Assembly: GCA_046351595.1 (NCBI GenBank)
Contig: JAXLYE010000002.1
Span: 1,496,022 to 1,560,021, forward strand
Direction: 5' to 3'
DNA length: 64,000 nt
DNA from: Polyangia bacterium
GTDB lineage: Bacteria; Myxococcota_A; Polyangia; Palsa-1104; JAEUJZ01
Shown: piece after piece, positions 28,095 to 28,205 of the stretch
Layout of the letters: every line of letters starts with the position of its first letter
Position numbering within the stretch: position 1 is the stretch's first letter
The notes under the pieces: generated by a model
What the model saw: only the letters and a program-made list of their open reading frames with translations
Database searches by the model: none
What the model was told of the DNA's origin: nothing
Position numbers and translations under genes: made by a program

Positions 28095-28205
28095 TTGATC
28101 AATGTTGATTCGAACATCAACGTAGTTGATTCAAACATCAACATACTTGATTCAAGAATCAACATACTTGATTGATCCATCAACATAGTTGATGTGGTAA
28201 TCAAC
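28095..28205. promoter_or_regulatory. AT-rich array of 5 (+1 half) TTGAT-N6-ATCAAC palindromes at exact 21-bp spacing (putative operator array) between divergent citrate-synthase-like genes
   Basis: Sites at 28105, 28126, 28147, 28168 and 28189: TTGATTCGAACATCAAC / TTGATTCAAACATCAAC / TTGATTCAAGAATCAAC / TTGATTGATCCATCAAC / TTGATGTGGTAATCAAC, separated by 4-bp spacers gtag/atac/atac/atag. An upstream half-site is TTGATcaatg. Confidence 0.6.

Follow-up and report, generated by a model that had tools for sequence, protein, structure and literature searches.

The subject of this analysis is a short AT-rich island at positions 28095-28205 of a 64,000-nucleotide (64-kb) stretch of Polyangia bacterium DNA (GenBank assembly GCA_046351595.1, contig JAXLYE010000002.1), hereafter called the window. 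The island lies between two divergently oriented genes, one for a plain citrate synthase and the other for a fusion protein, in which a helix-turn-helix (HTH) domain precedes a citrate-synthase-like domain, and it carries an array of five phased palindromes, each a dyad of two inverted half-sites. We consider it probable, judging from sequence comparison, that this island is the operator of the downstream one-component regulator, composed of a MerR/BldC-type winged HTH plus a citrate-synthase-like domain. Genes of the neighbourhood were called from third-position G+C plus Pfam, and the start codons were backed by ribosome-binding sites and by N-termini identical in relatives; for the fusion gene, relatives share both the start codon and the ribosome-binding site. 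The array is located 106-216 bp upstream of the fusion ATG (28311), and the divergent citrate synthase gene starts at 27960 on the minus strand, in agreement with the position between divergent citrate-synthase-like genes given in an earlier note on this DNA. The features of the locus are as follows.

26722-27960, minus strand: plain citrate synthase, 412 aa (Pfam Citrate_synt, 4.3e-99; NCBIfam PRK12350, 352.5 bits against a cut-off of 332)
27961..28310, no strand: divergent intergenic control region, 350 bp, containing the array; 75% G+C and poorly conserved outside the array
28095..28102, no strand: TTGATCAA, 8-bp palindrome, first element of the predicted ancestral operator; sole occurrence in the 64-kb window
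28105..28121, no strand: dyad 1, TTGATtcgaacATCAAC, forming the predicted ancestral operator together with 28095-28102
28126..28142, no strand: dyad 2, TTGATtcaaacATCAAC (sequence reading, comparison of units)
28147..28163, no strand: dyad 3, TTGATtcaagaATCAAC (sequence reading, comparison of units)
28168..28184, no strand: dyad 4, TTGATtgatccATCAAC; its TTGATTGA... spacer is also found in four of the five relatives
28189..28205, no strand: dyad 5, TTGATgtggtaATCAAC (sequence reading, comparison of units)
28311-29702, plus strand: HTH-citrate-synthase fusion gene, 463 aa (Pfam HTH_17, 2.9e-10; Citrate_synt, 1.3e-56)
28446..28613, plus strand: predicted winged-HTH domain of the fusion, residues 46-101, MerR/BldC/Xis type (beta-alpha-alpha-beta-beta-alpha topology, structural matches)

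Direct reading of the sequence between 28095 and 28205 gave TTGATCAA at the left end, followed by five TTGAT-N6-ATCAAC dyads. The dyads start at 28105, 28126, 28147, 28168 and 28189, the start-to-start distance being 21 bp each time, and are separated by GTAG, ATAC, ATAC and ATAG, in this order; each unit has its two half-sites in opposite orientation (TTGAT ... ATCAA). The period of 21 was detected by Tandem Repeats Finder (4.3 copies, score 117), and five in-register copies were identified by repeat finding. The G+C content was 32% for the array and 72% for the window, no other 110-bp stretch of which is as low in G+C as the array. The five phased palindromes in an AT-rich island, as described in the earlier note, were thus confirmed by the sequence, the repeat finders and the base composition, and the mechanical open reading frame 27563..28294 (minus strand) is indeed the repeat in translation (...MLMFESTTLMFEST...). 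The same note took the TTGAT at 28095 for an extra half-site. The TTGAT is present, the local sequence being cTTGATCAAtg, and is actually part of the conserved TTGATCAA element.

As to possible evidence against an operator, that note had named abundance of the motif at other positions, and identity of the array with a repetitive element or the end of an insertion sequence (IS). Neither was found in the window. With up to one mismatch allowed, the 64 kb contain six occurrences of TTGAT-N6-ATCAA, where 0.15 would be expected, and at most two matches were obtained in any of 100 shuffled windows. The single match outside the array (41732-41747) lies inside the ExbD gene (41317-41796, minus strand) of an exbB-exbD-exbD cluster, and is probably due to chance. 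TTGATCAA was found once in 64 kb, and the site is orthologous across genomes.

Conservation of the array was examined in the clade of the window, which was sampled with six members at about 75% protein identity or more (the window and five relatives). The number of dyads in each member, with the identity of its protein to that of the window, is as follows.

Window locus, reference: 5 phased dyads
L081, 93% protein identity: 5 phased dyads
L229, 90% protein identity: 3 phased dyads and a half-site
L082, 75% protein identity: 4 phased dyads
L230, 74% protein identity: 4 phased dyads
L231, 75% protein identity: 4 phased dyads

The 21-bp spacing was exact in all 25 units of the six loci, and both halves of the TTGA-N8-TCAA core and the T of the inter-unit junction were invariant in 25/25. 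The adjoining T, T, A and C positions were almost invariant, and spacer positions carried 0.3-0.8 bits. Zero indels were observed inside any array unit, whereas the flanking intergenic DNA is rich in indels. Between the window and the 93% relative, identity was 86% for the array, 74% for the left flank and 45% for the right flank. The unit with TTGATTGA..., dyad 4 of the window, corresponds to the third unit of L081, L082, L230 and L231. Since single units are recognisable as orthologues across genomes, the arrays are old and have not been homogenised recently. Invariant half-sites at fixed spacing are the pattern expected from base-specific protein contacts and from selection on spacing. The array of the 75% relatives ends about 30 bp ahead of the fusion ATG. 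More distant relatives (60-68%) carry one or two units of a variant, TTGAATCAACATTCAA, with TTGA-N8-TCAA retained, and the two TTGAATCAACATTCAA-type units of L086 are again 21 bp apart. As judged from these comparisons, the 21-bp dyad unit appears to have been amplified to 3-5 copies in the lineage of the window.

Such an amplification could be neutral. Only the left unit (28095-28121) would then function, the four extra dyads being products of slippage and their phasing a by-product. One dyad is indeed enough in most lineages, close relatives have anything from 3 to 5 copies, as would be expected of a slippage-prone repeat, and tandem duplication yields exact periodicity by itself. Against this explanation, the spacers differ between units within a genome, yet the units are orthologous across genomes, as illustrated by TTGATTGA...; half-sites are invariant and the arrays free of indels next to flanks full of them; and a neutral AT-rich repeat should decay in a genome of 72% G+C. 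Neutral slippage is thus considered unlikely, even though it is the best surviving of the alternatives.

The evidence that connects the array with the fusion protein comes from homologous loci in other phyla. A scan of contigs, one genome per species, showed that at least 597 of the 599 stretches among the matches listed encode a relative of the fusion, and 80 loci were kept. Dyad enrichment was counted on 87 loci with fusion homologues, the tripartite pattern described below on 91 loci, and partner genes on 86 loci. Strict TTGAT-N6/7-ATCAA dyads were found 68 times in 34,445 bp of DNA lying no more than 400 bp 5' of the HTH coding region, as compared with two in the other 687,893 bp, indicating a density about 680-fold higher upstream of the fusion HTH than in the surrounding DNA. 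At least one strict dyad was present in 59/87 loci, and the fusion loci, each about 9 kb long, have as a rule a single TTGAT-N6/7-ATCAA just 5' of the fusion gene. One of the two outlier dyads (L014) is located before the partner citrate synthase, where an extra gene is inserted ahead of the fusion.

Comparison of these sites revealed a tripartite core, RTCAA-N1-3-TTGAY-N6/7-RTCAA, which occurs once per locus in 61/91 fusion loci; the full arrangement, TTGATCAA-N1-3-TTGAY-N6/7-RTCAA, was detected in 27/91. Loci with the core pattern belong to Myxococcota, Alpha-, Beta- and Gammaproteobacteria, Acidobacteriota and other metagenome-assembled genomes. The window sequence 28095-28120 reads TTGATCAA-tg-TTGAT-tcgaac-ATCAA and matches this pattern. 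The left end of the array, TTGATCAA-N2-TTGAT-N6/7-ATCAA, therefore most likely represents the ancestral operator, which elsewhere is present as a single copy per locus. A putative operator of its own, with predicted autoregulation, was thus found in the control region of the fusion gene in 59-61 of the 87-91 loci. The earlier reading of the array as a set of operator sites gains support, at the level of sequence, from this cross-phylum site upstream of the fusions and from its conservation in the six clade members.

The gene on the other side of the control region differs between lineages. A divergent plain citrate synthase was identified in 48/86 fusion loci, mainly in Myxococcota, Alphaproteobacteria and Acidobacteriota. 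The divergent partner is prpB-prpC-acnD in Xanthomonadales and a family III coenzyme A (CoA)-transferase in Burkholderia and Paraburkholderia. For an Alcaligenaceae genome (L035), the divergent partner is TctC, and the TTGAT dyad is absent there. Because the fusion gene is the only constant neighbour of the site while partners vary, the operator can be tied to the fusion protein; it appears to track the fusion gene and not the partner gene. The partner genes (prpBC-acnD, CoA-transferase, tricarboxylate-binding protein) fit a regulator of tri-/dicarboxylate and acyl-CoA metabolism. Within Xanthomonadales, a locus with prpB-like PEP_mutase/ICL, prpC-like citrate synthase and aconitase genes divergent to the fusion and operator was observed (L053, 2983-3954 and 1736-3043), and the fusion and operator of L040, L058 and L063 are likewise divergent to the methylcitrate-cycle operon. 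The fusion of this group may be the local prp regulator.

The synteny bears also on a second alternative, that the array is the operator of another protein, either the XRE-cupin regulator (26030-26644, plus strand; Pfam) or an unlinked factor. XRE proteins typically bind palindromes, and both the window and the 93% relative have this XRE-family HTH-cupin gene, about 1.5 kb from the array. No copy was found in those 75% relatives whose flank suffices, though their 4-dyad arrays are kept, or in any of the 80 genome loci that have the conserved site once, while the fusion gene is the only gene always beside the site. The suggestion in the earlier note that the XRE-cupin protein might be the binder was rejected on this ground, since its gene was found only in the window and the 93% relative among the array-bearing and single-site loci examined. 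Altogether, binding of another protein is held to be quite improbable; the array is in our judgement rather likely to be the operator of the fusion protein.

The location of the site relative to the start codon is in line with this assignment. For several alphaproteobacterial loci the dyad stops 1 nt before an in-frame ATG (ATCAAtATGaa...). This dyad-to-ATG distance of 1 nt in L066, L067, L071, L072, L077 and L080 leaves no room for a ribosome-binding site, which suggests a leaderless transcript or an operator across the translation start. Since the dyad abuts the ATG in these loci and the array lies about 30 bp from the ATG in the 75% relatives of the window, the site must overlap the promoter or the transcript start, fitting autorepression.

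Variation of the putative reader was noted in Myxococcaceae and one Alcaligenaceae genome, for which the recognition helix reads TLYTY, and not TLYAY, and TTGAT dyads are lacking. The Myxococcaceae wing reads GTKENRY versus GRxRRY, and GTCGAC-type repeats replace TTGAT. Repeats of GTCGAC/TCGAC(A) were observed upstream of the fusion in L008, L010, L012 and L013, at distances of about 21-22 bp in L012 and L010. This co-variation of helix and wing with the site is a small hint that the HTH reads the operator, and could be due to co-evolution of reader and site.

The fusion protein was analysed with Pfam and AlphaFold2. The HTH_17 domain was detected at residues 46-92 with 40.7 bits (cut-off 27) and MerR_1 with 26.2 bits (cut-off 21.6), all HTH hits being within 46-94; Citrate_synt at residues 113-457 of the same reading frame is the sole Pfam domain C-terminal to the HTH. 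The full-length AlphaFold2 model (mean predicted local distance difference test score, 81) includes a disordered segment at 1-42, the winged helix at 46-101, a short helix with a linker, and the citrate-synthase fold. Past the wing, a helix (87-101, 104-112) and a low-confidence linker (111-117) lead into the citrate-synthase domain. The coiled-coil dimerisation helix and effector module of classical MerR proteins were not found in this model or in the Pfam scan. When the HTH was modelled alone, the best Foldseek matches were the structures of DNA-bound BldC, 6AMA/6AMK (33-35% identity, root-mean-square deviation 1.5-1.8 A), followed by SoxR, HiNmlR, MtaN, RacA and the excisionases Xis and RdfS. 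Sequence-only matches to SoxR and BldC were weak and in the same direction as the structure matches. Because of the modelled topology and these best structural matches, the DNA-binding domain is assigned to the MerR superfamily of winged HTH, predicted to be of its BldC/Xis branch. As a side result, this HTH was also considered as an excisionase for the tyrosine integrase encoded at 32889-34064; this candidate role was rejected, as many phyla keep the fusion and its site in surroundings that are not mobile.

With solved structures of citrate and methylcitrate synthases, the enzyme-like part gave matches at about 1e-33. When 22 members of the family were aligned, ADHELN, HGG and GxxHxxY...DPR proved invariant in 22/22, and the Asp of the VD motif (D411) was kept in at least 90%. 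We take these motifs to be the carriers of the substrate-binding and catalytic residues of citrate synthase. As judged from the motifs, the fusion protein thus seems to retain these positions. The architecture of HTH plus Citrate_synt was kept in the large majority of the 120 homologues listed, and family members are annotated merely as 'citrate synthase'.

As to the bound protein, the stoichiometry of dimers, the cooperativity, the sign of regulation and the ligand, we infer the following from sequence and models. Citrate synthases are known as dimeric enzymes. Dimerisation through the citrate-synthase fold would present two HTH domains, which would read the inverted half-sites TTGA(T)...(A)TCAA, one dyad per dimer. 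The array can be parsed in another way, as 10-11 alternating inverted hexamers (GTTGAT / ATCAAC) at centre-to-centre distances of 12 and 9 bp, in which case the invariant T of the inter-unit junction 'nTA' is the centre of a second pseudo-dyad. The N6/7 dyad is the better candidate for the pair of half-sites read by one dimer, because it is conserved across phyla. As dyad centres 21 bp apart correspond to two turns of B-DNA, all dyads should be on one side, and cooperative binding of five dimers to the same face is a reasonable inference from the geometry. Up to five aligned dimers would cover some 110 bp of the control region between the divergent genes, an occupancy that would repress the fusion gene (autoregulation) and control the divergent citrate synthase gene (26722-27960), which is the probable co-regulated target. 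Binding of oxaloacetate, acyl-CoA, citrate or 2-methylcitrate to the enzyme-like domain might alter DNA occupancy, and the response of the multi-site array might be steep. More broadly, and with somewhat less than even confidence, we put forward that the HTH-citrate-synthase fusions form a widespread, hitherto undescribed class of enzyme-derived one-component regulators that sense a metabolite of the tricarboxylic acid (TCA) or methylcitrate cycle by means of the citrate-synthase fold and act through a cross-phylum operator, TTGATCAA-N2-TTGAT-N6/7-ATCAA, with citrate synthase, prp, CoA-transferase or tricarboxylate-uptake genes as targets; one myxobacterial lineage would have amplified the operator into a phased array of 4-5 dyads that allows a nucleoprotein filament and a switch-like response.

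Several observations weigh against the assignment of the array to the fusion protein or against parts of this model. The exact 21-bp spacing would arise also from plain tandem duplication of a 21-bp unit. The strict dyad is missing from 28/87 loci, many of which carry variant half-sites, and nothing recognisable was found in L031 and L050. The co-variation of helix and operator rests on about two independent lineages, and dimerisation via the citrate-synthase fold is an assumption taken from the enzyme family. The scan of 27850-28450 for sigma-70 promoters and terminators detected none, and with no promoter of this type to refer to, the proposed sign of regulation is conjectural. Boxes of -35/-10 type recognised by eye inside the array were dropped, being weak and inconsistent between relatives. 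Finally, phased TTGAT-N6-ATCAA arrays were found also on metagenome and phage contigs without a fusion gene nearby. The scan for two phased dyads gave more than 120 metagenome matches, mostly in low-GC DNA, and 22 viral-contig matches, and a citrate-synthase fusion beside phased dyads was found in none of these (more than 120 listed and 22, respectively). Phased arrays of this motif thus appear to be a recurrent theme of other systems, and the scan says nothing on the regulon. The link to the fusion protein is drawn because of the homologous loci, and not because of uniqueness of the motif.

These unrelated arrays are of several kinds. Tandem 21-bp TTGAY-N6-RTCAA units, 11-19 in number, were observed on metagenome contigs of about 60% G+C (L159, 6934-7291; L173, 6428-6806; L161, 7451-7703; L171, 410-809), and several reading frames are open through the four arrays, which could be coding or non-coding. 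The flanks of the long-array contigs encode a Kir-like channel, a CHASE3 histidine kinase, TPR proteins and asparagine synthase, and no common theme was found in the flanks of the longest arrays (L159, L173 and L161). Contigs of assembly ERZ842401 (L089, L091, L099, L106-L108, L110, L111 and others) each carry three TTGATTTTAAAATCAA units spaced 21 bp apart, with other short repeats around them (...cggacta...tttaaac...), a dispersed family on the same half-sites. Mixed TTGAC-N6-GTCAA and TTGAT-N6-ATCAA dyads with 21-bp phasing were present in L105, L140, L196 and the viral contig L213, and look like operator or centromere sets of a mobile element.

The array of the window could act instead at the level of RNA, its palindromes forming hairpins in a 5' leader that serve as attenuator, stability element or protein-binding RNA. 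The stretch folds at -37.4 kcal/mol (z = -4.5 against shuffles) and is near the start codon in the 75% relatives, and yet any array of palindromes will fold with low energy as a matter of course. The stems, just 5-6 A/T-rich pairs, are invariant in sequence across phyla with no compensatory changes, the symmetric site lies between divergent genes, and no relevant Rfam match was obtained at E <= 1 in 27800-28500. We regard this explanation as very improbable. Still less credit can be given to the idea that the array consists of replication-origin iterons, serves as a partition site as in plasmids or is a piece of some mobile element or dispersed repeat: these would account for 21-bp direct repeats in an AT-rich island, within the size range of such tandem repeats (about 17-22 bp), for a tyrosine integrase gene about 4.7 kb away and for the similar phased arrays on some viral contigs, but no Rep, Par or DnaA gene is nearby, no DnaA boxes were found within 10 kb (the nearest DnaA-box-like match being more than 11 kb off, in a count at chance level), the genes on either side are chromosomal, with their synteny kept in many genomes and the site orthologous across phyla at the same gene, and, as for dispersed repeats such as repetitive extragenic palindromes, miniature inverted-repeat transposable elements or IS ends, the array occupies one locus in the 64 kb examined, at an orthologous position in relatives.

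The predicted operator of the fusion protein may be compared with known systems. Full-text search of the literature detected no description of an HTH-citrate-synthase fusion or its operator. The kind that is known is the autoregulatory MerR/BldC-type operator; what would be new is the fusion to a citrate-synthase fold and the clade-specific phased amplification. Classical MerR regulators (SoxR, MtaN, HiNmlR and BmrR) are dimers that bind palindromic operators of 16-20 bp at divergent or own promoters. They dimerise through a C-terminal coiled coil, and activate transcription by distortion of DNA at one dyad within the -35/-10 spacer, which is over-long at 19-20 bp. The winged-HTH fold is common to the fusion and SoxR, MtaN and HiNmlR, whereas in the model of the fusion a citrate-synthase domain stands where the coiled coil and effector module would be, and the five dyads of the array cannot all fit one promoter spacer.

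The best structural match of the fusion HTH is BldC of Streptomyces, and both lack the classical MerR effector domain. BldC is a stand-alone protein of 68 residues, which binds head-to-tail on direct repeats; on sites built of repeated units and variable in length it forms cooperative multimers and extended protein-DNA filaments (PMC5859096). The half-sites of the fusion are, in contrast, inverted to form dyads, with units 21 bp apart, in place of direct repeats, and its HTH is joined to an enzyme fold of about 340 residues, which probably supplies dimerisation.

In concept, trigger enzymes of the PutA type appear closest to the fusion by analogy. In both, a single polypeptide carries an enzyme fold as well as a DNA-binding domain, and both have a multi-site divergent control region. 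In E. coli, the ribbon-helix-helix domain of PutA recognises five GTTGCA sites in the interval from putA to putP, and the protein is switched by redox state and membrane association. The fusion differs in carrying a winged HTH on a citrate-synthase fold, and its sites are regularly phased dyads. The known PrpR proteins are sigma-54 activators or of GntR or XRE type, and we know of no PrpR with a citrate-synthase fold. The Xanthomonadales fusion and its operator hold the usual position of a prp regulator, divergent to prpB-prpC-acnD; the window has a plain citrate synthase, and no prp operon, as the partner.

A possible relative has been studied in Caulobacter crescentus, in which CitB and CitC (CCNA_03757/03758) are citrate synthase paralogues encoded side by side, in addition to the main enzyme (PMC7083601). 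An E. coli gltA mutant was complemented by CitB but not by CitC; no HTH is mentioned in that report (PMC7083601). The pair of a plain citrate synthase with a non-canonical paralogue resembles the arrangement in the window, and the fusion family is common in Alphaproteobacteria. By this analogy CitB/CitC may be the same gene pair, which we offer as a lead only. If the fusion is truly a transcription factor with a defined operator, its treatment as an enzyme in annotations and metabolic models may be in error, the failure of CitC to complement gltA could be related, and the fusion would provide a simple candidate route for coupling the status of the TCA or methylcitrate cycle to gene expression. 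The natural series of copy numbers (1, 3, 4 and 5 dyads) together with the conserved operator offers a system for studying operator multiplicity and helical phasing, and the whole proposal is tractable with one purified protein and one 111-bp fragment.

As to the remaining genes of the neighbourhood, a short-chain dehydrogenase (25075-25998, minus strand; Pfam) precedes the XRE-cupin gene. Directly downstream of the fusion lies a lysine/alanine-rich gene (29743-31293) with weak HC2-like and VWA-like Pfam matches, kept in the 93% and 75% relatives; it contains a coding tandem repeat of 15/30 bp in 14.6 copies at 30869-31087. The gene at 31322-32950 (minus strand) encodes a bacterial protein that has the shoulder and repeat domains of the major vault protein, and adjoins the tyrosine integrase gene (32889-34064, plus strand). 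Mfd is also encoded in the window; together with the vault-shoulder-like gene and the nearest homologues, it indicates the chromosome of a myxobacterium of Polyangia type. Another tandem repeat was observed at 38756-38873, where a 25-bp unit, GCGGCGTCAGCCGCGGTTGCCCCAC, is present in 4.7 copies at 97% identity; by frame analysis, it is mostly in the gap between two minus-strand open reading frames, its final bases overlapping the next one.

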